From Hormiphora californensis (Eukaryota > Animalia > Ctenophora): DNA of 64,000 bases. The position numbers and the translations under genes were made by a program. Each line of letters begins with the position of its first letter. The first letter of the stretch is position 1. Below the pieces are notes generated by a model. That model ran no database searches and was not told the DNA's origin. It saw only the letters and a list, made by a program, of their open reading frames with translations. Of the stretch, positions 1 to 52,051 are shown piece after piece. Where the stretch lies: contig CM035359.1 of assembly GCA_020137815.1 (NCBI GenBank), forward strand, positions 2,232,001-2,296,000, written 5' to 3'.

Positions 1-215
1 GACGTCACAAAACGACGTCACATATTGTGATATAACCAACCATGAAATCAGTACTGCAGAGCTGTACTGTGTTGAATCTCGCTCATCATTTCAAGAACAT
101 ACTCGCAGAGAAAATATCGACTTCCTCTCGCTCTCTTTGGTTGTTGTATATAAATAATTTACTTTGAATATAATTATATAGATCTGAATATTACAATAAC
201 AAACACGAGTGTTTT

Positions 216-262
216 AGAAAACAATTGTTTCACTACCAGTGGCCTGGTAGATCGTCAGTTCC
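216..262 (-). ncRNA. minimal type I hammerhead ribozyme motif in the inverted pLTR
   Basis: Minus strand reads GGAA-CUGACGA-u-CUACCAG gcca CUGGUAG-u-GAAAC aauu GU-U-UUCU: core boxes, 7-bp stem II, palindromic mini stem III, short stem I. Confidence 0.7.
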
Positions 263-291
263 GATAATGAAATATCAACAAGCAAACAAAT

Positions 292-1477
292 TTTTTTTTT
301 GGGGGGAAAAATTATTAAAAAGGAATAACAATCAAATTTATGTCTTCTTCCTCTACAGATAGAGCAGGTTATAGTCCACACTGTCATCAACTCGACAAGG
401 ACGCCTTCCTCGGTATCCTCTAAGACTGATGATGGTCGTCTTCAACAGGCAAAATGCTAGCCTTTGTCTGATGTATCGAATAGTATCAGCATAGGTGTTT
501 TTGTTTCGGGTACTGAGACTTTTTGCAATTTGTTTGTACAGTCTATCCGCGTCATCACCCATTGCACCAGAAGTGGAGAATACTACAGGTGTGAAGGTGG
601 CCTTCTCAACCTGAATTACCCGGTCCATATAGTTCCTCTTCTTTTCCTCCTCGTGTCTCCTCAACGTTTTCTCCACTGGTTTTGACCTGTTCGATGGAGC
701 TCTTGAATTGAACACTCTGATGTCAAGGAAACATTTTTCTAAGGGATTGTCCCATATTCCAAGTGCAGCCACATCCAACCTGGCATCATTTGCTGTAATT
801 GCTGTCTTGTGGTCGAATTCTTCTCCGGTGATAGGCAGAAGTCGGGGCTCTGTTGTTACATCCTTGCAACCTGCTTCCTCAAGCAAGTTTGCAGTCAAAT
901 CACGGATCTGATTGTGCCTCATGTGGACATATCCACCTTTAGGACAAGTAAGGCAGTGTTCGATCCCATTAATCTGCCCACAGGCACATCTGTTTGGGAC
1001 ACCTGGGATTGGGAAACTGTATCGGAGAGCAAGAGAGTCTCTAAACTCCTGCTTATTTAAGGTGAATCCGTGCTCTGACAAGGGAAGGGAAGTTAGCCAT
1101 GTAGATGCTCCTCTCTTACAGTGTTCCTCATGTAGTCTCAGTTGATTTGGTGTCATCTGTTTCCTCAACTCCTCCATCACTTCTGTGGATGCAGTACGTT
1201 TTTGGGATGTTATTTTCTCTCGTGCCTTTCGCAACTCAGCTTCAACTTGTTCGCCTCTTGAACTATCAATACTTATTTTCTGTTCTGTGATCAGTTGTGT
1301 GAGGGGAAAAGTAGCAATGCGGGATCTTTCGTATTCAGCATCAGCCTGAATTGTGGGATTATCGATACCCAAACCACCGTTCCTCGCCGGGAGTCTGAAC
1401 ACATCCCTGAGAAACTCAGAAAAATGGGTACCAATCAACACAGGAAGGAGTTTGGTACGGATTGCATCCTCCAGCGG
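292..1477 (-). mobile_element. 5'-truncated RLE-type (CRE/R2-like) non-LTR retrotransposon
   Basis: ORF 353-1441 has a CCHC knuckle (CACG..H..C), RHNQIRD and ARLDV..FLDIRV restriction-like endonuclease motifs. Poly(A) tail at 292-300. TSD GCAAACAAAT at 282-291 and 1478-1487. Confidence 0.85.
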
Positions 1478-1532
1478 GCAAACAAATCAATCCCTGCTCC
1501 TTTAGAAACATTTTAATAGCATGAACTTCCGG

Positions 1533-1967
1533 TCCTGCAACTGTAGAAGAACAGCTGAATGTCCCCTGCAACAAAAGTGTCTACAAAAAGGTGTGATCTA
1601 CGAGGCCAGTGTAACAACACAAACTGGAACATCCAGCTACGTTGGTCTTACGGAAAATCAATTCAAGACCAGATACAATGCACACCAGAGCAGCTTCAGG
1701 AGGGAAAATGCGAGGAAGTCAACTGAACTGTCGAAACATGTATGGGAATTGAAGGACAGTAACACCGACTTCACCATACAGTGGAAGGTTATTGACAGAG
1801 GGCACCCACCCAATGGACCCACACAATCGTGCGACCTCTGCACCACGGAGAAAGTACAAATACTGGAAAACTCCAAGAGGACGGATATAACCCCCCTGAA
1901 CAAGCGCTCGGAAGTTGTGGGAAAATGCAGACACACCCGGAAGTTCATGCTATTAAAATGTTTCTAA
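1533..1967 (+). pseudogene. Penelope-type GIY-YIG endonuclease domain (C-terminal fragment, RT missing)
   Basis: CNC..CPL..KC..KGVIY..YVGLT..FKTRY..H..SF..TELSKHVW.LK..CDLC..EK..LNKRSE..KCRH is the PLE GIY-YIG pattern. The ATG at 1521 comes from the inverted pLTR piece. Confidence 0.85.
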
Positions 1968-2010
1968 AGGAGCAGGGATTGATTTGTTTGCTTGTTGATA
2001 TTTCATTATC

Positions 2011-2057
2011 GGAAGTGACGATCTACCAGGCCACTGGTAGTGAAACAATTGTTTTCT
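2011..2057 (+). ncRNA. second hammerhead motif copy with a core change (GUGACGA instead of CUGACGA)
   Basis: Same sequence as 216-262 except C3>G; lies just downstream of the GIY-YIG stop. Confidence 0.6.
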
Positions 2058-2174
2058 AAAACACTCGTGTTTGTTATTGTACAGTACTCCAGGAAAATTT
2101 CATTGCCCTGTCGAGTTCTCCTGAGGACGCAATCCCCACAAATCACAGTGATAGATCTGAATATTATATATTAT

Positions 2175-2283
2175 CAGGAACCGACCGAAACAAGTAAACA
2201 CCCAATCAGAACTCGTTATTTAGGTCACGTGACTGGTTATCAGCCAATCAGGGACCAGTATTTCCTGATTCGGTCGGTTCCTA
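2175..2283 (+). mobile_element. ~109-bp hAT-like MITE (family A)
   Basis: TIR CAGGAACCGACCGAA...TTCGGTCGGTTCCT; other copies at 16046, 21640, 23061, 27308, 60035 and a partial one near 31395-31460. Confidence 0.85.
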
Positions 2284-2916
2284 ATATATTATATATATAG
2301 CCGCTCTAAAACACAGAATTAAATTAATTAATTGACACACGTCCTGTACGCTAGTTGCATCACTAGGCTAACTTAACACACTTCTTTACTTCTTGCAACA
2401 ACTATTTAATATCTGTTCACGACAGATTTGTATATATATCTATCTGAGCTAGAAATTAAGGTAGATGGGACTATTATAATTCTCACTCTGCTTTCTCTTT
2501 CTCTCTCTCTCTCTGTCTGACCAAGTTTGGTTTGGGATTATCAATTTTCTCTCTTTTAGTTTTGAGCTTTTCTTCTCTCTGCTGCTATATACATGCAGCC
2601 AACTAGAACATTATATCAGTCTTCTTTACTATATTCCCTCTCTATGCCTCTCACCCTCTCTCTCTGTCCCACTCCCTCTGTATCTCTTTCTCTCACCCTC
2701 TCTCTCTGTATCTCTTTCTCTTTCTCTCTGTCTCTCTTTTCCTTTTCCTTTTACCACATCCACAAGTCTCCATATATCTGGAATATACTCCACACACACA
2801 ACACACACATAACATCTGGTACAATCTGGTCTATACTCTATATATAATTCTGTATATATATAACAATATATATAACAGAAGCTCTATCATTTTCATAAGA
2901 ATCAATGTTTGAAGAT

Positions 2917-3089
2917 TCAAGAATGAGTAAGGAGATGCGACTTCAGATAAGCATTAAGTCCAAATCTCTTGCCGCATATGAAGCACTGATAAGGTTTCAG
3001 CTTCAGGTGAACCAAGTTTATATGACGTTGGAGGTTCCGTTTGTTTCCTCCCAGGAATTTTCTCCCGCACACTGGACAGGCGTATGTCG
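2917..3089 (-). CDS. alternative terminal exon encoding two C2H2 zinc fingers
   Basis: After acceptor TTCTAG, phase-1 reading gives TYACPVCGRKFLGGNKRNLQRHINLVHLKLKPYQCFICGKRFGLNAYLKSHLLTHS*. Confidence 0.8.
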
Positions 3090-3387
3090 CTAGAAGGTGT
3101 TGTTTGATTCAGTTTTTATTTGTAACGGTGGCGATATTTGTTGTGGATTGTTCATACTCTCTGTATAATCATCAGAGTCATTGTAATCTCCAGAGAGTGA
3201 ACAATACGACCCGGTACTACCGGTACCACCAAGTAGACGCTTTCTGAGTCTGCAGCGCTGCTGTGCCTCTCTGTTCAGCCTGCGCCGTCGATCTTTCCTG
3301 TCTTCCAGCTGCTGTTGCGTTGGCGCGGCGGCAGAGGGGGGTAGAGCGGCGTTGGCGGCGGCATTGAGGGGTTGAGGAGGATTTCAC
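3090..3387 (-). CDS. alternative terminal exon with a bZIP-type basic region (one probable 1-nt deletion near 3325)
   Basis: Acceptor ACTCAG, phase 1: EILLNPSMPPPTPLYPPLPP, then after a 1-nt shift PTQQQLEDRKDRRRRLNREAQQRCRLRKRLLGG...IKTESNNTF*. N-x7-R basic motif, no leucine zipper. Confidence 0.65.
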
Positions 3388-3772
3388 CTGAGTAGAGAGT
3401 CTCTCAGCGGTGCATTGGTATATTGTGGTACACGGAATAAGAGTAGGGAGAGAGGGTTGGTTGGTGATATGGCAGCATGCAGCATGCGACAGTATAGAAG
3501 TTGTGCGCGCGGGCAGAGAGCCGCGCACACGAGAAGAGATAATAACACTTTCAACAGATCCAAGACACTTTTCTGCTAGTTGTGAGGTGATGTTGCAGTT
3601 TTGTCCCAATTCTCTCGAGTGACCCCACTCCTGTTTCTTAGTCGCTTACAGCTGTAGTAGTAGTAAAGGGAAAGGAGAGCAGGCGAAAATTGAGAGTGAG
3701 AGCACGGGAATGAGATCCACAATTGTAGACGTGTAGGGAAAGAGGGAAGGAATGAGAAAGAGACAAGTGAGC

Positions 3773-3821
<49 letters not shown>

Positions 3822-5378
3822 AGTAGAGTTAGTCGTTAGCCGAGAGAAGAGTAAACTCTACGATCAGATAGATCTAGCTCCTCGTCACTTTCCTAGAGGG
3901 GCCTCGCGAACTCTACGTCTCAGCGTCTCTGTTTGGCGGCTCTCTCTCCTTTGATACGGAGTCTCGTCGCCGACGCCTCGATCTATCTCTTTCATACCCC
4001 CCCCCCCCTTACCTACCCCTCTGTCGCGCCTAAAGAAAAGCTTGTAACTGAAACGTACAGTTCCCCTCTTCCCTCCTCTCAATTCTCAATACCAACACAA
4101 CCGCCCCTATTTTGTAGAAGATGAAACAGCAGATGCAAAGGATATAAGTAAAGTGTATGAGAGAGGAAATAGAGTATGAGAAAGATATTGAGAGAGAAGA
4201 GGAGAAGAGAGATAAAGAATAGATGTGAGACAACACACAGAAAGGATAGAGCACTGGAAAGTCACTGTGTACACGTGAGAGGTAATGGTACACATGGTCC
4301 TGTGAATCTCTACTTCTCTCTCTCTCCGCTCAGTTTCCATCTCTTCTCTCTCTCTCATTATCAGTGAGGTATCTTTCTACCACTCATCTCTCTCTCTCTC
4401 TTTTTCTCTTTTTCTTTCTCTATCCATTTCTCCCTGGAGTAGTCTCTGAACTGGAACTATCTTTATCTAATCTCTCTCTTCGTTAACCCGCTAATCACCT
4501 TTCCCTCCTTATCTTAGATCATGGTCAATGTGAAGTGACATGTGTGAAGAAAGAAGGGAAAAAAAAGTAGAACTAAATTCTTTACTCTGTAAAGATAAAG
4601 TAAACTCTTTCTCTGACTCTCTCTTTTTCCTCATTTATTCTTCCTCCCTTTTTCTCTTCTAGTGCCACTTACTCGCCTGGAGTCATAAATCTCTGAACTG
4701 GAACTAGGTCTTTTATCTAATCTCTCTGCTTCGTTAGTACCCGCGAAGCAGCACTTTCCCTCCTTATGCTTTGAGATAATGGTCAACATGTGAAGGTGGC
4801 ATGTGTGAAAGAAGAAAGGGGGGAGCAGAGAAGAGATAGAAACTAAATTCTTGTAAACTCTGGAAAAAGATAAATGTACTAACTTATAATAGCAACGTCA
4901 TTAAAATCAAAAAAAAAATAAAAAAAAAAAAGCTAGTAAACTATCCACATAGACCGATCTATGATTTAAGATTTGTTTGATTTGAGTGTAAAAGAGATAT
5001 CACCTAAACGCTATTTCGCGCTCATATGTATACTTTTCGCGACGTTGTTCCACACTGGATGTTGTTTGTTGGCCTTGCCTACTAGCAGGGTACGATGAAA
5101 AGGAAATTGGGGTCAGAAATGCTTGAGGTCGGCAAAATGAGAAAAACAAAAAAAGTTTACCAACTGGACCGGAGGGAGGGTAGGAAAATATGAATCTGTA
5201 GAATTATTCTATGGATTTTCCATTAAGAACTAGAAAAGTCCAATACATTCTAACCCGTTCGCTTCTCCCCTTTCTAAGAACGCAGTGTCAACGCTTTCTC
5301 TCCCTTTCTAAACCCAGTGTCAACCTCCTCCTTTCTCCAGATTAATGACGACATCTGATCACCATTATGACGTCATAA

Positions 5379-5629
5379 TTAGGAGCTGATAAGCTGAACC
5401 AAGACGTCATTGTGCCGGGTGCTCATGTGATGTTTCAACTGCTTCTTCTGCCCAAATGCCGCTCCACACAGCGCACAGTTATACCTCCTCAGCCCCAAGT
5501 GAATGACGGAAATGTGCCTGTCGAGAGATGACTTGAAGCTGAAACTCTTGAGACAGTGGGCACATTGGAAGGGTCGGGCACGGATCGGTGTCCCTCTTCT
5601 TCCCCTCTGCTGCTGCTCCTCCTGGTCAC
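5379..5629 (-). CDS. alternative terminal exon encoding two C2H2 zinc fingers
   Basis: Acceptor CTAACAG, phase 1: DQEEQQQRGRRGTPIRARPFQCAHCLKSFSFKSSLDRHISVIHLGLRRYNCALCGAAFGQKKQLKHHMSTRHNDVLVQLISS*. Confidence 0.85.
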
Positions 5630-5739
5630 CTGTTAGTTGGTCTGTGTTTATCTGTCTCTCAAATATTGAGAGGGAGTAATCACCTGGATATCAGATCTCT
5701 GGACATTTCATCAGGATCACCATTATATTGGAACACGGA

Positions 5740-5897
5740 GCATTTCGTAGAACATAGAGAATCGTTTTGGAGCATTTCGTAGAACATAGAGAATCGTTTT
5801 GGAGGAATTCGTAGAACATAGAGAATCGTTTTGGAGCATTTGGTAGAACATAGAGAATCGTTTTGGAGGAATTCGTAGAACATAGAGAATCGTTTTG
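5740..5897. repeat. ~30-bp minisatellite
   Basis: About 5 copies of (GC/GA)ATTTCGTAGAACATAGAGAATCGTTTTGGA. Confidence 0.9.
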
Positions 5898-6034
5898 GTC
5901 TTTCATTGGGAAACGGAAACTTAAAATTTGGAGATATGGAACACTGAAGATCTTTTTGAATTCGATCAAAAACATAAATAATTGATTATTTTGTATTTCT
6001 TCCTCTCAAAAAAGATGACACTAATAAAATCAGA

Positions 6035-6144
6035 TTAGTTTTTTAGTTGATTCATCACATGAAGTAACTCTTTTGTAAGGAGGTCACGAGTTTTTATGAT
6101 GCAAGAATCATTTCGCAATAGTTGTAACGTCATTTCATGAATAC
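6035..6144 (-). CDS. candidate alternative terminal exon (short helical peptide)
   Basis: Acceptor ATTGTAG, phase 1: IHEMTLQLLRNDSCIIKTRDLLTKELLHVMNQLKN*; no recognised domain. Confidence 0.4.
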
Positions 6145-7100
6145 CTACAATGAAGGAGTGAAGATATCGTGAATGACGAGGTGCGGTAGAGAGAGAGAGA
6201 GATGAAGAAGGGGGAAAGAAGGAGAAGAAAAAGGGGGCGGAGAAAAGGGGAAAGAATGGGGCCCTTTTGGGGGGCAAGCACCGGGGGTTTAAAAAAAAGA
6301 GAGGGAAGAAGAACCCAAAAGGGGGGAAAAGATTAAAAAGGAAAGGGGGGGGAAAAAGGGGAGGGGAAAATTTTAATTAAATTCTGGGTTCCTGGCCATC
6401 CCCCCAAAGGGGGTTCAAGGATTACACACACAAACTAGGGGGTTCATCTTTTTTCCAGGTTTTTCCCAAACTCTGTTTCATCTATCTATCTTTCTCTCTA
6501 TCTCTCTCTTTATCTCTCTCTCAGTATCTCTCTCAGTATCTCTCTCTATCTCTCTCTATCCTCCTCTCTCTTCTAAGTTCTCCAGTATCTCTCTCAGATC
6601 TCTATCTTCTGGTTTTTCCTTATCTCTCATTCCCTATTTGGACAAATGTCCTAAAATGCGGGGGAATGATCATGCTTCATGAAGAAAACCCCCATCTCTC
6701 GTGCCCCTTTTTTCCCCCCTAAAACCCTCTTGCACTTCTTTCACACAAAAACTTTTACTGGATAAAAAATGATTTGAATCATTGTGCTCCACCCCTTTTC
6801 TTTCTCTTCCCCTCTTTGGGCAGTGATGTAATGCACTTCATTCTAAACCCTGCAGATATCATCTCAACCACGGTCTTCTAATTTCCAAAATAAATCCCAA
6901 CTATCGTTCTATATTAACCCTTCCCTTTAACTCCGGGATAAACTCATCAACGAATTACCGCCTGTGAAATTGTGTGTAGGAACCTGAGAGTGTAAATTTG
7001 GGCTAATTGGGTACCGCACACCCTTTATATCATTGTCACATATCTCGCTCTCCTTCTCTCTCCTTCTCTCTTGATGAAACAACACCAGTCACGTGAGTCA

Positions 7101-7183
7101 TTAGATCATGTACTCCTTCATAAAGATATCTATCACGTGAATGTTGCCACAGTACTCCCTTCCGCAAACACACCACTCCCCCG
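7101..7183 (-). CDS. candidate alternative terminal exon with a CxC-x4-C-x3-H motif
   Basis: Pyrimidine tract plus weak GAG acceptor, phase 1: GEWCVCGREYCGNIHVIDIFMKEYMI*. Confidence 0.4.
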
Positions 7184-8496
7184 CTCGAGAGAAGAAGAGA
7201 TACCGAGAGATGAGAATATGTGAAAGAGATGATAGAGCGACGAGCGAGCGCTCGATCTAAGAGGTAGTAGAAGTACATATATATATAATCTCTCTCTCTC
7301 TCTCGCTCTCTGCTCTGCTATTTTCGATCTCTATTCTCTTCCCCCTCTTGGACTCCCTGGTCCCTTCTTTTTACCCTCAATTAATGAAGTGGAAAATGGT
7401 CTCTCTCTGATCAGGTTCACACACACACACCCACAGGCGAAAAGGGGGGCATCACCACTAAGCTGCACACAAAGCAAACCTAGGTTTATGGCAGCTACCC
7501 CCTCTCTCCTCCTTCTATCTATGATATATCAACTCAAAAAGGAAAAGGAACCAATCATATTTCCATTGCTTCTTTTAAAATTCTTACTGTTTTCACTTAG
7601 CAATCAGGTTCGATGAGATAGGTATCGGAAAAGTTCAAACTTTTCAACATAATTTTAAACAAATTAATTTGAGGCTGAATGCTGATAAAGATGTAGTTAT
7701 AACATCGAAACTGTTCCTGAACAATAAAATCACCTCGTTTTTCTTTTTGCCACCTCAATTGAAACCGGAAGGAGATATCATTTCCGTCGATTGATAAACA
7801 ATAATAATTACTGAGCTACTATCTACTCCGAAGTGGCAGTCCTAATTCCTTTTTTACAACTTTAAAACACGTGTCTCTCTGTATTACAATCCTTCATTCT
7901 CTCCCCCTCTCTCCCTCTCTTTCCCCTTCTATCTCTTTCTCTCTCTGAATGCCTCAATAGTGACACGAGGCAGCATAATCAGTAAAGGAGAGGCAGAGAG
8001 AGAGAGGCAGAGAAAGGGAGAGAGAGAGAGAGAGGGAGATAGACTGTGAGATGGAGAAAGAGAAAGAGAGATGGAGAAATAGAGAAAGAGTAACTGCTAC
8101 GTGTCACTCGCACACGATGCACCACAAATCCCACAATTCTAGAAGAAGGAGGAAGGGCTTATACATTCTTTTAAGAAGGACTGAGAGTTTATAAATGTTG
8201 GACCAGGGAAATTATTAAAGATTCTTGTTATTTGAGAAAAAGGAGTTACTATTTTAGAGTAAGAAGATATATCCCAAAAGTAAGCATTACTGAATGTTTT
8301 AGTATACTAACCAAAAGTTAACCAAAAGTTAGTCAATTTTTGCTTTTTTTAAAATGGTAACCCACATTAAAATCGGCCTATTACTACTTTATATAATTCA
8401 TATTTAACCCATTTAATCCCTCAACCTTCACAGCTACTACATCCTGTCCCGCCCGTTTCCCTACCTAACCCATCTGGCATCCGCTCTGTTTGTTTT

Positions 8497-8797
8497 GTGG
8501 TTACTCAATTCAACTCTGTATTTAGGGGTTACTCAATTTAACTCTGTATTTTGGGGTTACTCAATAACTCTTTGTTTAGGGGTTACTCAATTCAACTCTG
8601 TATTTTGGGGTTACTCAATTTAACTCTGTATTTTGGGGTTACTCAATAACTCTGTATTTTGGGGTTACTCAATTTAGGGGTTACTAAATTTTGGGGTTTC
8701 TAAATAACTCTGTATTTTGGGGTTACTCAATTCAACTCTGTATTTTGGGGTTACTTAATTCAACTCTGTATTTAGGGGTTACTCAATTCAACTCTGT
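8497..8797. repeat. ~29-bp minisatellite
   Basis: Tandem GGGGTTACTCAATTCAACTCTGTATTT(T/A) variants. Confidence 0.9.
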
Positions 8798-11241
8798 ACC
8801 ATGGCTGCACCTTATCTATCACACGGGGGGAGTTGAATCGAGTTCACTCCCTGGTATTTAGTGAACAAATTAAGCCGACTGAAGATATATTATAGAGAGC
8901 TATGAGCTCTCAAAAGTTTAAATTTCCTAATGAAATTTGCGATTAGCTCTCTCACCTCCCCATTTCTGAGTCGCCTCTCCCTCTATCTTCTCTATCTAAT
9001 ACACAACACCCAACCTCCCCCTCTCTCTCTTTGATTCACTCTAAAAGGTAGTAAAACGAACACATAACTCCCATTTTCTTATCTCGATTGAAGAGTGTTG
9101 TGGGTTGTGACCAATGGGAACTCTCCGCTCCGGTCACGTGACCCTAACTCAAAGCTCGGTATGTGGTCACGTGACTACAATAGAGCACCTCCATTGGTCA
9201 AAAGGTGTGTCACGTGACCTGCCCAACATAGTGTTTCTCTTATCACTAACTAATTACTCTCTCTCTCTCCCTCCTTTGGGCTATGAATCACTGCCCAAAG
9301 AAATAGAGAACCAAGGTAGCACACTGTTTTATTCGACCCGAGAGAGGGAGAGAGGGGAGTTATAGGAACATCACGAGCATAGTAATATTAGAGTCTGGTA
9401 CGAAATAGTCCCATGATCACGGTCTGGACCGTATCTGGGGTATATATAATGACAGTAAACTCTAGCTCAAACATAATGATTTGCATCGAATATATAATAC
9501 AGGGTGTTTTTTATATGATCGAGTCACATCCAAAAACGCCATAATTCTCTCCAAAAACTATGTGTCGTCTAGATGTGTCATGATTATCTTCTCATTTTCC
9601 CATCATGTACCCGGATATCGCGGTTTGCGGGGCACTGTGAGAGGTGCATGCTCGGTTTCACAGTGGTTTGTGGTCCCACAGTCCCTCACATACGGGTAAA
9701 TGAGGCTCTCTTTTTTCTCTCTCGTTATCTTGCTACCCAATTCCAGTCGAAGGGGTAAATAAATTTTGAAACGTTAACCATCCCCCGGTTCGTTATTACC
9801 CACAAAAATACCTACCATCTAGCATAAAATATAATAGTGCCGCATTTTTCGGTTTGTACAGGAAATGAGGATATTAAATGCGACAAAGCGAGAGATAAAG
9901 GAGGGGAGCTAGAGAGAGAAGGACCGTTATAACAGAGATAGAAATAAAAAGCGGCATGGACTGAAGAAAATAGTGGGTGAGAGCGGTGAGCGGTGAGAGG
10001 ACGGGAAATAGAGAGAAAAATTGTTTATTGTGTACAAGTTTGCAGGTAAAGAGAACTCTGATATAATGTCAATATCACCGGGACAGGAAAATAGTGCTAC
10101 GTGTAAACGATGCTATATAACTTGACTAATATAACATGATAGTTGTTACAGAGTCGAAAGTGCATTTTATATTATTCTTGAAATTGAACAACATGAATAT
10201 TAATTTCTTAATTTCCGAACTCACTCCCCCGATATTCATTTCAGCACTCAATTCGCTCAATTCTTCATAATTTTGTCCTAAAAGCCACCTTCCCTTACTC
10301 TCGTCTCTTCAAGTGTGCGATAGGAAAAAGACCATGTAGCCCATCCGCAAGGAGAGCTAGAGGGGGGGAAGATCTTAGCGAGAGAGACATCGCGCGAGTA
10401 TCTCATAGCTCAGGCGCGCGTCGAAGAGCAGCGACGTAGATCCTAATCTCGCTCTCTACTCTTGTCATCTCCCGGATCTCTGCTACGCAGCTCTCGAGCT
10501 TCGCGCTTTTTCCATCTTTCATCTCTCCTCTCTCCTCTCTCTCTACTCTCTTGCGTCGTCTCTCTCTCTAGCGCTCTCTGCGGCTCGTCGCTCTCGCATC
10601 TCTCCCTCTCTCGCGCGCGCTCTCTCTCTCTCTCTCTCTCTCCTCTCTCCTCCCGCTTTAGCCCAAGAGAGCTGTAAAGATTCGGGGTTCATAAAATGGA
10701 CAAGGGAACGATTTAACTGATACATGTAATATAGAAAAAGAAAACATCTGAAAAGCCCCTACTTTTTGAAGCTGGTAACGGAAACGACCTCCTTAATGTT
10801 TGTGAACGATTCTATAGCCAAGTACGTGACTCAGACCAAGTACGTGACTAAGATCACATGTACGTGACTCAAATCATGTACGTGACTCAAATCATGTACG
10901 TGACCTCATGACTCATGAGGCAGCTGCGGATTCTGATTGTGACGTCATGAGGAGGAGACAATGAAATTGTGAAAGCAGTTGTGAAAGCATGCAAGGATTT
11001 GTAAGAGAGTTTTGGAAGATGAAAGAAGAGTGTATATTGACATAAAAGAATACAAAAGCATTGGCAGCACGAGAAGTAGTACACAAATATATATATTCCT
11101 TCCCGTCTGAATCTTCTAGCCCCCCTCAGGGATAATCCAGGGGACGAGAGAGAACGATGAAGAGAGAGAGAGATAGAGAGGGGAAGGAAGTTATCGACAC
11201 ACATACAAACATACAGACACGTAATGTATTTAACGACTTAC

Positions 11242-11798
11242 TGTTAGGGCTGGATTTGCTGTTGTTTAAATTGGGCGTGCTATTGGTTGAACTGCACTCT
11301 GTCTTTGTTGGGCCATCCGGCCTGAAAGGGATCGAGGGATTAGGACTGGTACAGGGTTAGGGCAGGGTTAGGACTGGGACGGGGTTAGGGCAGGATTAGG
11401 ACTGGGACAGGGTTAGGGCAGGATAAGGACTCGGACGGGGTTAGGGCAGGATTAGGACAGGGACAGGGTTAGGACTGGGGCAGGTTTAGGGCAGGGTTAG
11501 GGCAGGATTAGGACAGGGACAGGGTTAGGGCTGGGTTAGGACTGGAACAGGGTTAGGGAAACAGTTATAGTGTGGAATAAGAAACATCCATTGCATTTGA
11601 TTCCGACCGGTCCTAAGATTTCAGAAAGGATCATATCCAGTGTTTTCTTTACTAACTGACGTGACACAAATTCCTAATGAGGTTCAACATTTCTCAACTT
11701 GACACATGTACTCCTTAATGAGGTGTCCACCTAATTAGTTCGTTCACCCAAATAATTGCATTCGAAAATGTACAGAAGGGAACACGAAGGATTATATG

Positions 11799-11842
<44 letters not shown>

Positions 11843-12050
11843 AGAGAGCGAAAAGAGAGAGAAAAGAGAGAGTTGAAAGCTGTTTCTTCTCAAATTTCTA
11901 AGTTCATGAAACCTAACTACACCTGCCAGTGTGTGTACCCTCCTTCTGTCGCAATGATGCAATGCGGTGACCTTTTTGTTCCCCCGCAAGTGTGTACAAC
12001 TTCACATCATGTTAGCTTACAGGAAAGAGAGGGAGAGAGAGAGAGAAGGG

Positions 12051-12141
<91 letters not shown>

Positions 12142-14235
12142 GAGAGGAGAGAGAGAGAGAGAAAGAGAGAGAGAGAAAGAGAGAGATAAAGGAGGAAATA
12201 AGAGAGCATTATATCTTGCGGGTGCTCACGTACATTTGTGAAAATAGAACAATAAGATAGTATCTCATAGGGTGCGGCCGGAATGAATCTATAGGTCTGA
12301 CGTCATCTTAGCGGTTCTATCGACAGAGGACAGACAACAATAATTGGCCCTCATTTTATCGGGCGAGATTTGGTCGCTGATGGTATGAAGAATTTCTTTT
12401 TTTTTTTTCTACACAGTTCTACACGGGTACATTGGTAGCTGTGCAGCTCAACACCTAGAAACAGTACCATTAGGTCATCTCTCACAGACACACACACACA
12501 GGATCACCACATACAACTATTCCCTTTCTCTCCACAATCCCTCATTCTAACGAACGGACTCTCTTTACTCTCATTCTCAGGAACCAACTCTCTTCACTCT
12601 CATTCTAGTCGTTTTCTCCCTCTCTCTAAAATTCTCCCATTTGCTCTCGATTCTCTCATTGAAGCCTTTTTCTCAAATAGAAACACAAGTACACAATGTC
12701 CTCACTACACCGTCATTTCCCCCCCCCCCCCCCCCATGCATGGCCTGCCGGCCATATATTCCATGAAAAAATGAACTTACGATGATTGAGCGTTTCTATC
12801 GCACAGGGCGCTGAAAAGAGAGTTCTGTTCGAGGGACGATTGGCTAAGATGAAGCATTGAGAGAGGGTTCTTCTTCAACAGAGGGAGGTTGTTGAGGGAG
12901 GCAGCCGCTCCCCCCGACGCGGCCAGTGAGGAAACTAACTGTTGTAACCGTTGTTCACTCTCTCCAACGCCATTAACAATTGCTGCAGCGTCGAGGGGTT
13001 CAGTTTTAACATCAGTTAGACCAGCTTTATAATCGATTGTTTTGTTGTAGAGAAGCGATTCTTGGAGCTGTTTGATGATGTCCAGTTGAGCGTCTTTACC
13101 ACCGAGCAAATTTGTAATCAGACCCGGGTCTTTGTTGGGTAACACAGGAGGAGAATCGGACGTCCGGCCTAGAAAGGACCCAAAATCGTTTGATCGTGTT
13201 GGACCACCACCTCCTCCTGAACTTGTTGTGGTGACGGTAGCAGGTGAAGTTCGGCTGATCTCAAGGGCTTGTGATACGGTGTCCAGTTCCCGTTGTAGCT
13301 GGGAGATAGTTTTATTGATGTCTGTTAGGTTGGCGGGTGGAGCTGTTTCTGAAGAGGACGAAGAGCATTCTGATGTACGGTGGTGCATGGCTGCCAGGCT
13401 GAAGCTAGGGATGTTAGCTGGCATGCTTGTGGAGGTGGGCATGGTAGCCGCTAGTTGGGAGAGTACCACTTTTGGGGAGAAACTGGATCCAACTGTTGGT
13501 AAAGGTGAGGACGTCGTGGGTAATCTGAAAGAAATAACAAAAATTAAAACAAATAATATATATTTGAGTGGGTACTGAACAATTTAAAAAAAAAACAATT
13601 TAAAAAAGAAATCAAAAATCACACTTACTCTGGTTGAACTTCATTAGTCTCCATATCAAGAATCTCCTCCTCTTCCTCGTCCGGATGTTGTCGAGGAGAT
13701 GAGGAGGTTTCTACTGATGTCTTGGTTGGGCCTGCTGATACAACCTCAAACACTGGCGTCAGCTGTTCCACTGTAAGAGAAAATGGAAGGTTAGTAATAT
13801 AGTTGATTTATGATGGAATATTACATATCCTAGTGAGTAGTGCCGGCTCTGCGATATTCCCATGTGGGTTTGCCCAGCCACTCTGTAGATAGATAGATAG
13901 ATGGAATATTACTATGACGACTTGAAGATTAATTGTAGGAATATTAATTGCACTGGTTTGGGTAGTTGGCAGCCTACTTGGAGGATTCTCTAGTTCAAAC
14001 AAATTGGCGGTTAGTGCTTTTAACACCAGGGTGACAACAAATAAAGCTGCAGCGTGCCGACTTCTGAGTGGTTTCATAAAGGCTCACCTATTGATATGAC
14101 ACGCATTGTGGTGTCGAGTAGAAAGTATAAAAAGTCATTGTCGCTCTTCTGTTGGAACCGAAACTCAAGTTTTTGTTTGTGATACAAGGAAAGTACGCTG
14201 GGATCATCTGCTTTTATCGTCAAAACTTCTGCCAT
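11242..14235 (-). CDS. shared 5' exons of a putative transcription factor (exons 14235-14088, 13770-13629, 13524-12781, 11321-11242)
   Basis: GT-AG junctions with consistent phases 1,2,2,1. Protein: MAEVLTIKADDPSVLSLYHKQKLEFRFQQKSDNDFLYFLLD..., acidic and S/T/P/Q-rich middle with a short coiled coil and VKTEP SUMO-like motif. Last shared donor at 11242 is phase 1. A possible phase-2 cassette exon lies near 12010-11923 in noisy sequence. Confidence 0.75.
11341..11560. repeat. telomere-like GGGTTAGG minisatellite in an intron
   Basis: Repeats of GGGTTAGGGCAGGATTAGGACTGGGACA and variants. Confidence 0.85.
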
Positions 14236-15013
14236 CTTTCTAACGTTTCCTAACGATCAGTTAAAATAAAATTAGTAATCAATTTAAAACTGAAAAATAT
14301 TTTCCATGCGTATTGCGTGTGGTCTCTCCTGGTTAATAATAATAATAAGTTTCTGGATAGTGGATGGGGTGCACCCCTGGTCCCGGCCGGTGCGATCTTG
14401 AACTTTATTATGGTTCACTATGACTTATGAGCATTCTCGGAAATTTTCAGGTCGGGCACATTCAGGTCAAACCCACAAATCACAGCTAATAACGTGCGGG
14501 TCACATGTGCGCGATGGAGCTGTTCTGCGCTGTGATTGGTTGAAACTGTTCACGCTGTGCCTGACATGAACACGAGAATGTTCATTAGCATCAATTTTTA
14601 GCAGCGGCCAACGGGTAGCGAAGAAGAAGCTGCCGAAGAGCGAAAACTCAAAACCGAAAGCCGAAAGGGTGGTTACTGGTTTTGAATTTTGACGCTTAAC
14701 TTTTTCGAGTTTCGCGACTTGAAATTCACAGTTTTTAACGACGCGACGCGCACCCGAGTCCTGCAGCGCATACTAGGAAGAAATTGCGCTACGCGAAAAT
14801 AAACGTGACACGCGGATGATTGCCGATACGCAGTGCGGCGCGGCGCATAGCTTGGATGGTGCAGATTCACCATTTTTCCAGGTGCGATCTTTTTCTTTCT
14901 TTCTTATTTTTTAGCAAAAATTGCAATTTTGGGGGCCCTTTCACCATCAAACCGGTCTCTGGCTGCACCGAAAATCACAACAATCCTTGGAAAAGACATT
15001 CAGATCATCGAAA
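14236..15013. promoter_or_regulatory. probable bidirectional promoter between the TF gene and LRRC58
   Basis: Divergent start codons about 780 bp apart; CpG-rich core near 14740-14860; ATTGG (CCAAT) box near 14535. Confidence 0.5.
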
Positions 15014-18000
15014 ATGGATATCAACCTCAGCAACAGAAGTTTATCACATTTATCCTACACGGATCTCATGGCATCAGTGAAACACTTGGACTTGTCGAGA
15101 AACCAAATCTCTGAAATTGACAGTGTTTTTCGGAAATTGAAGCGGCTTGAACGGTTAGACTTGTCAGATAATCAGATCGGGTTTTTGTCATCAGAATTAA
15201 AATGCCTGCGGTTTTTAAAGACAGTAATCATTAAAAAGAATCGAATAAAATCAGTTGCTATTGACTTTGGTGTGTCACAGTCGATCGAGAAGCTCAATTT
15301 GGCAGGTATATTTGTACATTTAACGCATTCATCAAGCAAATCCAAATTTCAATTACTTTTAGGTAATCAACTGTTGGAGATGCCGATTCAGTTCACTATG
15401 TTAACTCGATTGGTTCATCTTAATCTGGGAGCCAACAAAGTAACAGCCATCCCCCATACAATATCACAACTTATGAGGTATATAATTAAGTGGTATATAT
15501 TGGCTTTATCTGGTAGCAGGTTTCATTGCACCAACTTGTCTTGTAATATCTTATTTGGCTGACTTTATATTCTTCAAACAACTGTCAACTACTCGTTCAT
15601 CGTCTCACACATCTGTTTCACTTTTTCAGTTTGGAGTATTTGTATTTGGGTGGAAATAGAATTATCTGTCTCCCTATTGAAATGGGTTATCTACCTCGTT
15701 TATCAGCGCTATATCTTCACAATAACCGGATACAGCATGTTCCACCTTCTTTCAGGTATAACACATTAAATTACACAATTCCTTGGAGTTGAAAAATTTG
15801 AATTTTGATAATTCAATTCCGCAGGTTTTTGAGGAGCCTGAGGACTCTCACACTCCACAACAACAATCTAAAGTCCCTTCCTCATGGTCTAATGGCTCTT
15901 AAAAACTTGGAATCCCTAACAATACGGTAAAAAAACGAGTTCCTAAAGTCATATCTCACCACCCCTGATACATATTTGTCTTTTTGACAAAACGAGGGTT
16001 TTGCGCTTGAATTGACAGTGAATATTGATTTACATATACAGTGACCAAGAACCGACCGAATCAGGAAATACTGGTCACGTGACCTAAATAACGAGTTCTG
16101 ATTGGTTGCTTACTTGTTTCGGTCGGTTTCTGACAGTGACCGTCCAATATTCCAGGCAAAATCCTCTGGTTCAAGACTTCGTTCGAACGTTACCCTCAGG
16201 ACCACCTACACTGCAGGAAGTGGCCGGTAGACTCATTAAAAATCTGGGTACATATAATCATAATGTGGTTTGTTACTGTGTTAGTAAATAGGGAGTCGAT
16301 CCCAATGGGAGAACTTTACAGAGAACTCGAGTTTTGTTTTGGATAATGTGCATTGTGTATTCAGTATTGTGTGTTGCACCCGTCACATCTTCTTGGTTAC
16401 GAAGTTACCCCTTGCCAGCGTGCACAGAGTGTGAGGTGTCTTCGATACCAACGCATCTCCGCCCCGTGATGACATTGTTGTAGTTATCTTGTGAATAGGC
16501 AGCATGACAACTTAGGGGCAAAGCTTGGGTGGCTGTGTAGGTAGGCCTGTTCGTTTGTTTGTTACGACGACGGTCCGTGGAGTGGACACAAGCTTGTCTG
16601 TCTGTTTTGTTTGTCCGCTTCGGTTCCAGTTTATACACAAATGATAAAACATTTAGTCTTCTCTTTATCTAATAACGAACGTTGAAAGTAAAACCGCACA
16701 ACAAACAACAACAAAACAATAAATTAATTCATCCTCGGATCAATTCATCTTCGGATCCTCAAGTTCTTCTCATTCCTCTCTTCCTTCCTTCCTTCCTCTC
16801 TTTATCTAATATCTGATCTTGTATTCCTTTTTTTTCTCAGTTTTATATTTCTCTCTTTCTTTCTCTCTTTGTTTCGACTGTAATTACTTTCAGAGAAATA
16901 TATGATAGTAATTCTAAACACATCAAACCACGTCACAATTTACAGACGACGTGTTGATTGTAATAACAAACGTTAAACTCAGCTAATAGTAGGGACGAAT
17001 CTTAATTTTTTGACACACTATTTGGTGAAAAGCAAATTCCGGTTGTAACCCACCTATTTTGACCCGCTGAACAAGATCCCATTCATAGGTAAGGTCGAAA
17101 AATTGGAGAACATGCCCAAATCGGCCACGCCCTTTTACCTGTATTTTTAGCCTGTAGCCAAAAACATAAATCCTCTTAGAATAGGAGAAGAGACAAATCT
17201 GAAGGCACTAAAGTGATCAGCGCCCTCGCATTAGTGGGGGTAGGTCCCGGAATTAAGTCTCTATCTCATCTGGTTTTCGATGAGCGAAAAACGGTAAAAA
17301 GCCCGATTTTGAGCATCGTTTAAGCCAAATAACGGCTAAACGGTTGGAGATAGAGCTTAAAAGTCCGACGTCGACCCCCCATAACTTGGCTATTGCCTAC
17401 AAAATGGCGCCAGTGAAAAGCCTCTAAACCATTCCTAAGTGGCTATAGCCATATAGCCAAAAAGCGGTTATGCGCAAACCTAATTATCCAATTATCTAAT
17501 TAACCAGATGAGATAGAGACTTAATTCCGGCACCTACCCCCACTAATGCGAGGGCGCTGATCACTTTAGTGCCCTCAGATTTGTCTCTACTCCTATTCTA
17601 AGAGGATTTATGTTTTTGGCTACAGGCTAAAAATACAGGTAAAAGGTCGTGGCTGATTTGGGCGTGTTCTCCAATTTTGCGACCTTACCTATGAACGGGA
17701 TCTTGTTCAGCGGGTCAAAATAGGTGGGTTACAACCGGAATTTGCTTTTCACCAAATAGTGTGTCAACCACTTCTTTTTATAAAATCTAAAAATTAGATA
17801 CAAATCTCAAACAAACGAAAGTATTAAACAATCAATTACATACAAAGTACAGAAAACACGTACACGCAGTGTTCATTTCTCATTCCTAGTTCTCTCTCTC
17901 TGTATCTACAATTCCAGATATATTCACACAAACACACACACACACAAACAAACACACAAACACTCAGTCCTCAGACACACACACCTGCCACTATCTGACG

Positions 18001-21260: not shown

Positions 21261-21639
21261 ATCTCTATCTTGCTCTCGCAATCTCTATCTATACACCGTA
21301 CCCGTTAATCAAGCTACCTCGAAAAGCTACTGAAGGATTCTCAGCACCAAGATCTATTTACAATAAGACCACAGCGATGCATTGATAAACTGTACATCTA
21401 ACGAGAACTGTATGGCGGCGCCATACCCCCCATTCGACAGTGCGCTCAGATGGGGTCGGCGGCGCCAGACAGAACGAGAAGGGAATATTACTCGAGGAAA
21501 ATCATTCCTATTTTCTCTCCAATCCTCAGCTTATTTTAACTAACACATTACAACTACACAATATCACGGTCATGTGTGGCTCAATCATCCTTGAAACGCA
21601 TAACGGAGCTTGAAAACAAAATTCTAATGTACTAAATAT

Positions 21640-21748
21640 CAGGAACCGACCGGACCAAGTAAACAAGCAATCCAAACTCGTTATTTTGGTCACGTGACTG
21701 GTTATCAGCCAATCAGGGACCAGTATTTCCTGATTCGGTCGGTTCCTG
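21640..21748 (+). mobile_element. family A hAT-like MITE
   Basis: Full-length match to the family consensus. Confidence 0.85.
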
Positions 21749-22652: not shown

Positions 22653-25523
22653 TCAGCTTTCAATATATCCAATTTCCTGAATTTCGTTTTCGAGCCGCTC
22701 GATCTCCTGCTTGGGTATCTTCATCAAGAGCCTTCAGTCGCTGGAGAAAGTGAGGAAAAGCTGTTAGATTAAGGGCTTTATAGATTGTGAGAACTGGTTA
22801 TCAATGGTCTGTAAAATTACATAGTTATTTGATTTTGGGCAATATACGCCATATAATTGGGAGATTATTTGAAATAACGGGCTCAGGAAGCTTGTAGTTG
22901 TCGAAGAAGAAGAAGAAGAAGATATGGGCTAGAGCTGTCTAGCGCCGCCGACCCCATCTGAGCGCACTGTCAATTTGAGAATCGAATGGGGGTATGGCGC
23001 CGCCATGTAACAGGGCTAGAGTAGATGGTGGAGCTGGACTATGGCAGATCTCCCCTGAAACCAAGAACCGACCGAATCAGGAAATACTGGTCCCTGATTG
23101 GCTGATAACCAGTCACGTGACCTAAATAGCGAGTTCTAATTGGTTGTTTACTTGTTTCGGTCGGTTCCTGCTGGAATGTTAGGTGGAGATCTGCCAGGTA
23201 GCGGGGACGAGAATGTATTATAGGGAAGAAAGGGGAAATTAGATTTGCTCAATCTTTTATTATTACTGATCGCCCCTTATATAGCTTTAAATTAAATTAA
23301 TAATTGTATGTAAACGCATGGTGTTTTAATACAATATAAATGTTATGTGCTATTGAGTTAGTTAAATATAAATCAGATGAACTTGTTACCATTTTACAGA
23401 CACACCAATATAATACACACTGGAAATAAACAGGGAAACTTCAAAATTGGACAATAAAGATTCGTGAGAAATTCGTATAAAATGTTCAAACAGCTTACAG
23501 CACTACTAAAATGGTGAAATAAGAGTATTAAAATATACCTTGAAGTAGGATTGATCCGCTAGTTTAATTTGCTCCTTGTGCTCTGCCACAACTTGCTCTC
23601 GCCTGATCTCTTGGTTTCGTTTCAACTGTTCAGAGAGGGAAGTTGTTGAGTAAAAATTGTCGGGAAACTAGAGCAGAGAAATTAAAGGGAAGCAATTTTT
23701 GCTCTGACAGTAACGGAGGAGCTAGTTCCAGTACCTTAACAATGTCTCCATCAAGTTTCTTGTCGGCCTTCTCATCGACCTCCTTTCTCTTCGCTTCTAG
23801 CTCTGACTTGTCCTTAATCTCCAGACTGTACTTGGCCATTGAATCAACCTGAAAGCGAGAGGTTGTTCAAACACATGTGCATGGGTATTGAATTTATTTG
23901 GGCATTTAGCCCAGGAAACAAACGGGCGGTTCAAAATCAATTTGAGATAGTGCGTGACATATAAACTTTTAACATGATAATTCTAAGTACTTTGAAAAAC
24001 AGAGAAGAATTGATTCCCGGTTGATAAGAGATGACATTTTATTTATTGAGGAACTGACCTTTTCTCTTTTCCTCAGATTCCAGCTTACTCGTTTTGTTCT
24101 AAGACGGTGCGTTTCAATTTCAGCGGGACCTGTATTCTTCGTGTAACTATAAGAGGCAATTTGTTCTGATAACAGTCAGTTAACTTAACAATTCCTCATC
24201 AATTGCTCTTCGGTTCTAACCACCCCTCTCTACCCCCTTCCAGCTCTACTCCCTTAATCTCCAACTGTACTGCCCTTGAATCAACTGAAAGCGAACGAGT
24301 TGTTCAAACAACAATATTCCTATCTCCAACAAGCCATTTCTAAACTAATAGAACCTCCTTCTTCTTTTCTAACGAGTCTGCTTAACCTCTAACACCATCG
24401 ACACTTCTCGATTTCTCTACTCTTGCATCTCTGACCTGTAAAATCATCTCTAACCTTGAACTGACCTTCTTTACCCTCATTCCCAGCTTAACCATCGCTT
24501 TTTCGTTCAACTGGTCCTCGAACGATTGCCACCACCATTTACGCCTACTCATCTTTGTTTCCATACGCAAATGAATCTTAACTTCTTTAATCATCCATCT
24601 TACTCTAACCTGCCCCCATCTCTAACCACCCCATCTCTAACCTCTAACCATCCCATCTCTAACCTCTAACCATCCCATCTCTAACCTCTAACCACCCCAT
24701 CTCTAATCACCCCATCTCTAACCTCTAACCATCCCATATCTAACCTCTAACCATCCCAATTTCTAACCTCATCATGATTTTCTTTGATAAGCTTCTTCTT
24801 CAATTCGAGGACTTCATTCTTGTGAATCTTTTCGAACTTTAGGCTCTGAATCTTGTGAAGATTCTCAATATTCTTAACCTGAAAGAGAGATAGATAGAGA
24901 TAGAGGAATGGGGACAGAGATAAAGAGAGATAAAGATAGAGGGGTGGGACAGGGAGATAGGTAGAGAGTTAGAGTGTGAGAGAGACATATTAATGTTCAT
25001 ACTTTATACGAACAAGGCAAGGGGAGGGACTAGGGAGGGTTGTTTTGTTCAAACCCGGGGCGCGGGGAGGGAGGGTCGAACAAGGGGAGGGGAGGGGGGG
25101 CAAGGGGAGGGGAGGGAGGGTCGAACAAGGCGCGGGGGGGGGGGGGGCTCAATTGCTATATACCTCTTTAGCTTGTTTCTCGTCGAATTTCTTCATATAC
25201 TTATCAAACTCTTCTTGGCTATCACTGAATGGAAATATATAATGTTAGTTGGCGATGGAGTGCTGTACAGCCAAACCCCGATTTACCGGAACAGCTCTGC
25301 GGTTTCCCGATTCAATTCGAGGTTTGACTGTACACAAGATTTATACTATAGTTCATATATTGCTTCACTTTACTGGTATTGCATCACCCAAACAACATGC
25401 ACACACGGAAAACAAGCTAGGTTTGTACATGCTAAATCGGGTATATATATATTGATCATACAAGATTTATGAGGGGGTGCTGTGCTCTGCTGTCGTAAAA
25501 AGTGTGAGAGAGATAGGAAGAGT

Positions 25524-32100: not shown

Positions 32101-33822
32101 GGCCGCTTGTTGGGTTGGTTCAGGTTTGGGCGGTGGAGGGGCGGTGGAGCCATCCGGAGCAGCTCGTCCCTGGGATAGGATAACCAGCGATAAATTCAGC
32201 GGAACAACCAGCACATGATAATAATAATAATAATAAGCATGTTTATCAAGATATATATTTCAGCAACTTTTTACCTCTGTTATTCCAGATCTTTGTATTC
32301 TTACCTTGACACGCCTCTTGTGCCGGTTGTTAGTTTGTGTTGCAGGTCCACTTTTCTCGGCCTCAGCTTTAGGTTTGTTATCGTCCACCAAATCATCATC
32401 ATCAACTAGAGTCTTCAGGGCATCAGATCGCATGGACATCACCTCATCCTGCGAAGAGAGGTGTCAGAAGATTCAGGGGGTTCAAATGAGAGGTCAGGTG
32501 TCAGAACTTTCAGGGGGTTCAAATGAGAGGTTGCAGGTGTCAGAACTTTCAGGGGGTTCAATTTAGAGCTTGGTTAGAAGTTAAATTATTGTGTGTCTGA
32601 TATCTGTTTCACCCAAAAAACATCGCAATAGTCTTCAGACTGGTCACCGGGGTCTAGGGTTTTCTCAGTTGCAGTGGGTAGGGTTTATTGAAGTGCGTTT
32701 CGGGGCGTTAATTGGGGGTTTTAGAGGCCATCCTGTTGTCGGTGAGGTGAGGTTTAAAGGGGTAGAGGAGAAGATGGTAGCGAACGTTCAGGGTTAAGAG
32801 ATTGGGAGTAAAGTAAAACCATGAAGGGGTAAGGGGGAAATCGGCAAAATTGAACAAAAAAAAAGGTTCGAACGTCCTTACTAGGTCCTACGAATCCTAC
32901 CTGTTTTGTGCGCGTGGGATACCCAGGCATTAACAAGTTTAGCTCTCACGGGATGATCGCGCCTCAATTCTGGCGAAAATAAGCCATCCTGTTGGGGGGT
33001 GAGAAATTTAACGGTGTGGAAGGAGAGGGGAAAAAGGGGGAAAAAGGGGGGAGAGAGGGAAAAGAAAGAGAGGAAAAGAGGGAAAAGGGAAAAAAAAAAA
33101 AAAAATTTGGGGGGGGGGGGGCCCCGGGGGGGGGAGGGAGGGGGGGGGGAGGGAAAAAAGGGGGGAGAGAAAAAGGAAAGAGGGTTTAGGGGGGAGGGAA
33201 AAAAACTTTTTTGGGGAAAAATTTTTTTTCCCTTTTTTTTTTTAAAAAAAATTTTAAAAAACCCCCTTTTATTTGAAAATTTTTTTTCCCCCTTTTTTTT
33301 TCCCCCCCCTCCCTTTTTAAAAACTTTTCCCCTTTTTCTTGACAGTGGCTGCTTGGTTTGGGTCATGAAATCAGGCTTCAGTAGGTACCCACTTTTGTTG
33401 TTAAACTCAAACTTGCCTGGAGAAAAGGGAAGGGAGAGGGGGGTTGAGAAAATGGGGAAAGTGATGGAATTCTGATGGCAATAATAGAACAATCAACATT
33501 TAAAATTCACATTTATTGTAAATCTCAGCAAAGGTTGGCTTCAAAATAAGGCACTTGTCACAATATTTCCACCAAATCAGGCCGCGAGGAAGGGTGCAGA
33601 GTGGGAATCTTTGATCAACTCTTCCTCTCTATCTCTCTCTATATATATATATCTCTATTTATATATATCTCTCTCTCATCACGGTATCACGTACAACTCT
33701 CTCTCTCTCTCTCTCTCTCTTTCACTGGACCAGGACCAGATATTATCTTCGGACGCCATGTGGATAGTAATATATTATTCCCCAAGTCGTATGTGGTGTT
33801 TTAGGTCTAGCTCTTTCTCTTT

Positions 33823-51458: not shown

Positions 51459-52051
51459 ATGACTGATCTTGCCCCCGCCTACTCTCCCTTCTTCGGCTGC
51501 ATGGGAGCCGCTTCAGCCATCGTTTTCGCATGTAAGTATCATGAACCTGTTTTAATCACTTCCGGGTTCTTAGTACTTCCGGTTTAAGCTATTTAGTTAA
51601 CTGAAAGTAGTTCTAGATAGCTTTCAGAGCTCCAGGGTATGGGAAATTCCTAGCTTTTGTAAGCGAGTATTGATCGGAAGGACGCTGTATTACAATTTGA
51701 ACGAGATAAACACTTTTTGCTCTAAAGCGATTTAAATACTTATTATTTATTTTTATTATTACTCTTCACTTGTGAAAGATTTGCCAATTTTTTAGGAAGA
51801 TTAACAACGTGGAATTAGTTGTTTCTAACCTAGAATCTAGATTCTAGATACCCCACATTTGGTTCAAGTTTATGACACTTGTAACTTTTCAGCTTTTGGA
51901 GCAGCCTACGGAACAGCCAAATCAGGAATTGGTATCGCTTCCATGGCTGTGATGAAGCCTGACCTGATCATGAAGTCCATCATCCCCGTTGTCATGGCTG
52001 GTATTCTGGCGATCTACGGGCTGGTTGTGGCAGCCCTAATTGCTCAAGGAC
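51459..52051 (+). CDS. ATP6V0C: V-ATPase c proteolipid, 5' half copy A (exons 51459-51531, 51893-52051); no private 3' exons visible
   Basis: [77 protein letters not shown], ending at a phase-1 donor. Confidence 0.85.

Follow-up and report, generated by a model that had tools for sequence, protein, structure and literature searches.

The locus considered here lies in a stretch of 64,000 nucleotides (64 kb) from the ctenophore Hormiphora californensis (GenBank assembly GCA_020137815.1, contig CM035359.1, positions 2,232,001 to 2,296,000 of the forward strand), referred to below as the window; positions are those of the window. On its minus strand, four exons encoding a common protein body are followed by three terminal exons with different predicted DNA-binding modules, and the one body almost certainly has two or more live tails. 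A preliminary description, made from the sequence letters, had proposed a body without a BTB domain whose alternative tails switch between C2H2 zinc fingers and a basic region. This proposal gained support from an orthologous gene, whose isoforms diverge at the corresponding position and carry these same three tails.

The common body

The common body spans positions 14235-11242 and comprises four exons, whose 1114 bases make up 371 codons and a single A, with no stop. Common exon 1 (14088-14235, minus strand) carries the ATG and the first 49 residues of a front domain, ends at a phase-1 donor, and is matched by 27 sequences in a phmmer search. At its end, 25 of 28 homologues run on into the intron at an identical point, and three are spliced. 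Common exon 2 (13629-13770, minus strand), which is entered in phase 1 and left in phase 2, encodes the last 13 residues of the front domain and then an acidic low-complexity stretch, and aligns after exon 1 in all seven full-length homologues compared. A first model had included two extra small exons at 13989-13913 and 13882-13825, neither of which has a homologue match at E ≤ 1; they were dropped because the homologues join exon 1 straight to the exon at 13770. Common exon 3 (12781-13524, minus strand, phase 2 out) encodes a linker rich in serine, threonine and proline, with a few short conserved blocks, one of them a heptad-like helix, and is matched by the Bolinopsis body in a tblastn search (E 4e-6). 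The last common exon (11242-11321, minus strand) runs up to a GTAAGT sequence, the phase-1 donor at 11242 at which the shared exons had been said to end. Its last four residues are the end of a 461-residue prefix common to four Bolinopsis isoforms, and all five genomic open reading frames of the orthologue cluster stop at the position of the intron that precedes it.

Identity to the homologues is 74% in exon 1 and 22-27% in the large exon 3; by this measure, the Hormiphora gene is diverged from its Bolinopsis and Mnemiopsis homologues. A word search with the large exon, covering 7993 candidates of 434-2000 residues, returned nothing at E ≤ 1, even though orthologues exist, because the exon is too diverged. 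The window contains the front domain only once, and Rfam has no match in positions 1-16000.

The terminal exons

Three terminal exons lie downstream of donor 11242 on the same strand, their acceptors 5.6, 7.9 and 8.2 kb away. Two of them encode zinc fingers, in agreement with the preliminary description, which had called both of them phase-1 exons with two C2H2 fingers and a stop of their own. Exon A (5379-5629, minus strand) opens in phase 1 and carries two C2H2 fingers in frame (Pfam zf-C2H2 E 2.8e-10), followed by its own stop. It is the orthologue of the tail of Bolinopsis isoform X3, with 84% identity over 64 residues to X3, 83% to Mnemiopsis P0043 and 72% to P0041 from JGI; the next-best non-orthologue reaches 40-43%, and the orthologue clade has support of 97/97. 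Exon C (2917-3089, minus strand) also opens in phase 1 and carries a different C2H2 pair (Pfam zf-C2H2 E 3.2e-9), in frame and with its own stop. This exon is the orthologue of the isoform X2 tail, at 74% identity over 53 residues to X2 and to Mnemiopsis P0067, with a next-best match of 55% and clade support of 97/98. The tree of 26 finger pairs that gave these supports resolves little otherwise and carried long-branch warnings, and only its two orthologue clades were used; it excluded the basic-region tails, the candidates 7183 and 6144 discussed below, P0055, and four tails with one pattern match.

In a six-frame search with a profile of 28 tails, exons A and C were the only zinc-finger exons of the window, with E-values of 4e-25 and 1e-20 for the two and a best score elsewhere of E 1.7; no zinc-finger exon was found on the opposite strand. 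Their acceptors have weak pyrimidine tracts (0.35 and 0.53). Exon C has no in-frame methionine, and the first methionine of exon A falls at the end of its second finger. Both exons therefore lack a usable methionine ahead of the fingers, and neither could code them as a separate gene.

The third terminal exon, exon B (3090-3387, minus strand), contains a bZIP-type basic region at 3305-3234 without a leucine zipper, and is the orthologue of the isoform X4 tail. The acceptor AG of exon C is part of its TAG stop codon. The basic region matches Pfam bZIP_2 at E 0.021, below the family cut-off; the X4 tail passes this cut-off. Against the X4 tail, identity is 83% over 24 residues (E 2e-11, next best E 0.34), and both sequences carry an asparagine with an arginine eight residues later. 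Pfam bZIP matches end at profile position 25-29 of 54-64. The basic region is followed in the window by a stretch of glycine, serine and threonine, and in X4 by sequence that, by inspection, has no leucine heptads.

Two weaker candidates had been offered as further tails, 7183-7101 and 6144-6035, and both were rejected. Neither has a Pfam match or a match among 30 homologous tails (best E 0.20; none at E ≤ 10), and candidate 7183 has a GAG acceptor. A filter requiring a pyrimidine tract and 24 open codons was applied to the 320 YAG sites downstream of the donor; it passes 24 in phase 1, against 27 and 30 in phases 0 and 2, and fails the two real zinc-finger acceptors. Phase 1 is no richer than the other phases, and an open phase-1 frame by itself is therefore at chance level.

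Orthologous isoforms in other ctenophores

The strongest evidence for alternative tails came from the Bolinopsis gene LOC134821797, for which RefSeq holds four isoforms, X1-X4, with exactly 461 residues in common followed by four unrelated tails. Three of these tails pair one to one with the tails of the window (84%, 74% and 83%), and the Hormiphora body without its front domain scores best against the same gene (120, against 91 and 60). Equivalent joins recur in other records: Mnemiopsis P0043 has the X3-type join and Mnemiopsis P0067 the X2-type join, and the P0066 contig carries the X1 join. Three JGI sequences, P0041, P0072 and P0073, share one body but carry three different tails, one of the X3 type, one of the X1 type and a further one. 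Their contigs of 1.4-1.5 kb look like spliced transcripts, because the open reading frames cross intron positions.

All 25 Bolinopsis tails start with a residue for which a codon beginning with A is possible, compared with 41% of the other tail residues. This fits a phase-1 donor ending in A, and it fixes the split point rather than expression.

Homologues were found by phmmer with exon 1 (27 matches) and by a word search with the front domain, which yielded 11 proteins (260-828 residues) from 13 candidates. All named homologues are from Bolinopsis microptera or Mnemiopsis leidyi. A metagenome-contig search for related loci returned one bacterial locus, L001, a chance match. The literature search, with most subscription papers outside its reach, found no description of this locus or of lola-like loci in ctenophores. 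In RefSeq, the isoforms of LOC134821797 and of its paralogue LOC134813369 stand uncharacterised.

Paralogue and other carriers of the front domain

The Bolinopsis paralogue LOC134813369 has a far larger set of tails. Its isoform numbering runs up to X34, and the 33 distinct named proteins fall into five clusters (27, 3, 1, 1 and 1). All 21 isoforms examined share 373 residues, and all 21 tails differ, a count that is a lower bound given that 21 of the 33 named proteins were examined. One to three finger patterns are present in 20 of the 21 tails and absent from one. The Logan contigs P0026 and P0031 bear the X9 join of this gene. RefSeq labels its isoforms after unrelated proteins (sal-like, myoneurin-like and ZNF236-like).

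In two European Nucleotide Archive (ENA) sequences, P0028 and P0032, the front domain is followed by a low-complexity body and then by a partial SIX domain plus a homeodomain. Their open reading frame is apparently intronless across the position of the exon 1 intron, and one copy lies on a 194-kb contig. They may represent a retrocopied isoform whose tail belongs to a third DNA-binding class, or a fixed fusion. In P0001, a 1183-base JGI contig, an exon 1 homologue (78%) is followed from the exon end by a galectin-like stretch (Pfam E 0.004); this may be a chimeric contig, read-through or an odd splice.

The front domain

The front domain has about 62 residues, with 11 invariant columns in 26 sequences. 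The predicted fold, with a mean predicted local distance difference test score of 84, has an extended start and helices at 12-24 and 32-63; the monomer model contains no strand. No match in Pfam, PHROGs or NCBIfam is common to more than two of the 26 members. BTB is absent from the Pfam matches of the four orthologue isoforms (E ≤ 0.05) and of the 26 front-domain members (E ≤ 5). The best match to sequences in the Protein Data Bank (PDB) is E 0.061, Foldseek gave no hit at E ≤ 10 in the PDB, and the Atlas has no match. The top matches of a wide structural search, which include MatP and MazE chains, have Z scores of 5.0-5.4 and root-mean-square deviations of 3.5-5.2 over 49-60 aligned residues. 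A Z score under 8 may reflect an arrangement common among proteins, and the ribbon-helix-helix chains are equalled by bHLH and unrelated helical chains; by sequence, the domain matches no ribbon-helix-helix family.

We infer that the front domain may be a self-association module, the job done by BTB in lola, because of the position of the domain, its hydrophobic pattern and the zipper-less basic tail. A two-copy complex prediction scored 0.02 against a mark of 0.32, in a run for which the alignment was not used and the fold is uncertain, and which speaks neither for nor against pairing.

Mechanism of tail choice

The model that best fits these observations, and that is probably correct, is a three-tail cis model with four common exons, donor 11242 and three mutually exclusive last exons. 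One pre-mRNA would be read through the whole tail array, and the donor would pick one of three weak acceptors, each leading to a tail with its own stop. Tail choice would occur in cis, through competition between the weak acceptors coupled to polyadenylation. If 3089 were chosen, exon B would be skipped; if 3387 were chosen, the exon at 3089 would fall within the 3' untranslated region. All products would have the same front domain and linker but distinct DNA-binding modules and predicted DNA sites, and the front domain would bring about the pairing needed by a basic region without a zipper. Hormiphora is expected to make all three messenger RNAs (mRNAs).

Several observations weigh against this model. 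For exon B, the preliminary description had claimed a phase-1 opening and a basic region. The basic region is present, but in this assembly the phase-1 opening fails: the basic-region frame (3383-3090) is shifted by one base relative to acceptor 3387 and is preceded by a TGA at 3386-3384, directly after that acceptor. A phase-1 join at 3387 gives a 37-residue proline-rich peptide unrelated to the basic region. Of the nine AG sites in 3460-3270, just two, the AAGs at 3301 and 3292, lead into the basic frame, and both fall within the start of the motif. The basic-region join is seen only in the RefSeq model X4; X isoforms in RefSeq are produced automatically, and their read support is not visible. 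Nothing in the window corresponds to the X1-type tail, a third finger pair, which is either beyond base 1 or lost. Polyadenylation signals after the tails are sparse, with an AATAAA at 4639 and an ATTAAA at 2410. The matching pieces from five sequencing runs contain no splice joint of Hormiphora; word shares are 0.00-0.12, the joints are repeat-derived, and the pieces are short and DNA-like, some of them intronic DNA. Elsewhere in the locus, the matching pieces show no homopolymer slips, and none covers 3387-3306. They differ from the assembly by a 4-base intron deletion, a 3-base insertion and a 2-base insertion.

The frame break of exon B lends itself to an alternative in which the same gene has only two live tails in Hormiphora, both with zinc fingers, exon B being dead through a real frameshift or used in a short form via the AAG at 3301. 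The break as assembled and the lack of homopolymer errors in the run pieces are consistent with this alternative, as is the X1-type tail, which may likewise be lost in Hormiphora. On the other hand, the basic region has kept its high identity to X4 across 24 residues in a gene whose large exon has fallen to 22-27%, and its frame is open for 97 codons to its own stop. Assembly slips are common in homopolymer runs, and the 82 bases between acceptor 3387 and the motif contain runs of three A, four C and six C. This alternative is rather unlikely. In the three-tail cis model the frame break would be a one-base assembly slip or a rare allele.

A second alternative concerns the splicing reaction, and holds that the isoforms are at least partly trans-spliced, with internal promoters driving the tails, as in mod(mdg4) and lola. 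More than 30 mod(mdg4) isoforms are all trans-spliced from independent promoters (PMC13490949), and the paralogue array equals that of mod(mdg4) in size. The tail acceptors are weak. Ctenophores have spliced-leader trans-splicing (PMC4824033), but this is a different reaction. All tails in the window lie on one strand, in order and within 8.2 kb downstream of the donor, so that cis-splicing suffices, and the absence of opposite-strand zinc-finger exons from the window further argues against trans-splicing, which we consider a distinctly improbable explanation.

The proposal that the tails are separate genes, or that only one tail is ever used and the isoforms are artefacts of automated annotation, would accommodate the modelled status of the RefSeq isoforms and the lack of Hormiphora junction reads in the five runs, but is very hard to sustain given that identical joins recur in Mnemiopsis, JGI and Logan records, that JGI contigs place three tails on one body, that exons A and C have no methionine with which to start their fingers, and that the front domain occurs once in the window. 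We take the locus to be genuine and conserved, a transcription-factor gene with alternative last exons that varies a known design and builds it on a new domain.

Other features of the window

A leucine-rich-repeat gene (14915-15792, plus strand) lies head to head with the common body, about 700 bases from its ATG, and the two genes may share a promoter. To the left of the last tail is a 377-codon frame (353-1486, minus strand), and beside it a 153-codon frame (1506-1967, plus strand), neither with a Pfam match at E ≤ 0.001; positions 192-291 are repeated at 1982-2081. We take the first frame to resemble the end of a non-long-terminal-repeat retroelement and the second a GIY-YIG nuclease, and on these likenesses both may be mobile-element remains.

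A dispersed repeat of about 110 bases has at least seven copies (2172-2282, 16049-16133, 21637-21747, 23065-23170, 27305-27415, 31394-31459 and 60035-60145); its translation probably also occurs in Pleurobrachia gene models. Five long palindromic or inverted-repeat elements of 0.7-1.4 kb, with arms 96-99% identical, lie at 17010-17767, 25870-27213, 35016-36413, 42587-43897 and 55950-57320, two of them copies of one family. A MULE transposase frame of 403 codons (60831-62042, minus strand; Pfam E 2e-10) is flanked by repeats at 60422-60651 and 63669-63898, recorded as direct repeats in inverted orientation. Tandem exons at 51841-52074 and 53618-53917 (plus strand) are about 86% alike, and represent a duplicated gene or alternative exons; they resemble V-ATPase proteolipid subunit c. 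Distorted homopolymers at 6200-6380 and around 32900-33300 look like poor assembly, and nearby frames may hold errors.

Comparison with known systems

If the three-tail cis model is correct, one donor gives access to both C2H2 fingers and a zipper-less basic helix, which is unusual. A fixed head joined to many tails is a design known from arthropod BTB genes. Here it sits outside bilaterians on an unrelated, unnamed domain, and each tail has been kept between diverged ctenophores, which indicates that it arose separately and is old. If genes were counted by their longest isoform, the practice followed for orthology in PMC12221973, 20 or more distinct predicted DNA-binding proteins of a single ctenophore locus would be overlooked. 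This matters for ctenophore cell-type specification and for the factors behind chromatin loops. A broader and more tentative picture, doubtful as a whole, is that of a ctenophore family of modular transcription factors built on a new two-helix pairing domain, to which as many as 30 or more alternative exons are joined, encoding DNA-binding modules of three unrelated folds (C2H2, zipper-less basic helix and SIX homeodomain). The isoforms would pair through the domain and so specify cell types, including nerve cells, or chromatin loops by a combinatorial code; the family would have evolved apart from lola and mod(mdg4), and might also be trans-spliced.

Tail B shares with the bZIP factors (PF07716, PF00170) the basic-helix asparagine and the arginine eight residues on. 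Unlike these factors, it has no zipper and is encoded by one of several alternative last exons in a zinc-finger gene. The zipper-less SKN-1 of nematodes is a comparable basic-region factor. Another parallel is with CTEP1 and CTEP2, ctenophore-specific C2H2 loop-anchor proteins with five and six fingers, respectively (PMC12221973). The proteins described here are likewise ctenophore-restricted C2H2 proteins, but identity with CTEP1 or CTEP2 was rejected, the tails here having two fingers and the sequences in the supplement of PMC12221973 being unlike them by eye.

The closest parallels are with lola and mod(mdg4). The lola gene encodes a TTK-type BTB domain and produces 20 isoforms, of which 17 have different C-terminal C2H2 fingers (PMC11426971). 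As in lola, the ctenophore genes have a constant front, one donor and a bank of last exons that mostly encode a zinc-finger pair, and the paralogue, with 21 different tails among the 21 examined and numbering to X34, resembles lola in number. Unlike lola, there is no BTB domain. The TTK-type BTB is arthropod-specific (PMC11426971), and the front domain, with its two predicted helices and no family match, is about half the length of the 120-133 residue BTB constructs of that study. A further difference is that one ctenophore tail is a bZIP-type basic region. The mod(mdg4) gene produces more than 30 isoforms, mostly with FLYWCH domains and all trans-spliced (PMC11426971, PMC13490949). It resembles the ctenophore genes in having one common part and many DNA-binding ends, whereas the latter have no BTB, no FLYWCH in any tail scanned, and no opposite-strand zinc-finger exon in the window. 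Shared by all of these loci are common exons that lead to one donor, a single phase into the last exons (here exons A and C, and the orthologue and paralogue isoforms), and last exons that encode different DNA-binding modules as predicted by Pfam. By these features the Hormiphora locus appears to work like lola and mod(mdg4), but it is not a member of their class, having no BTB domain and not being from an arthropod.

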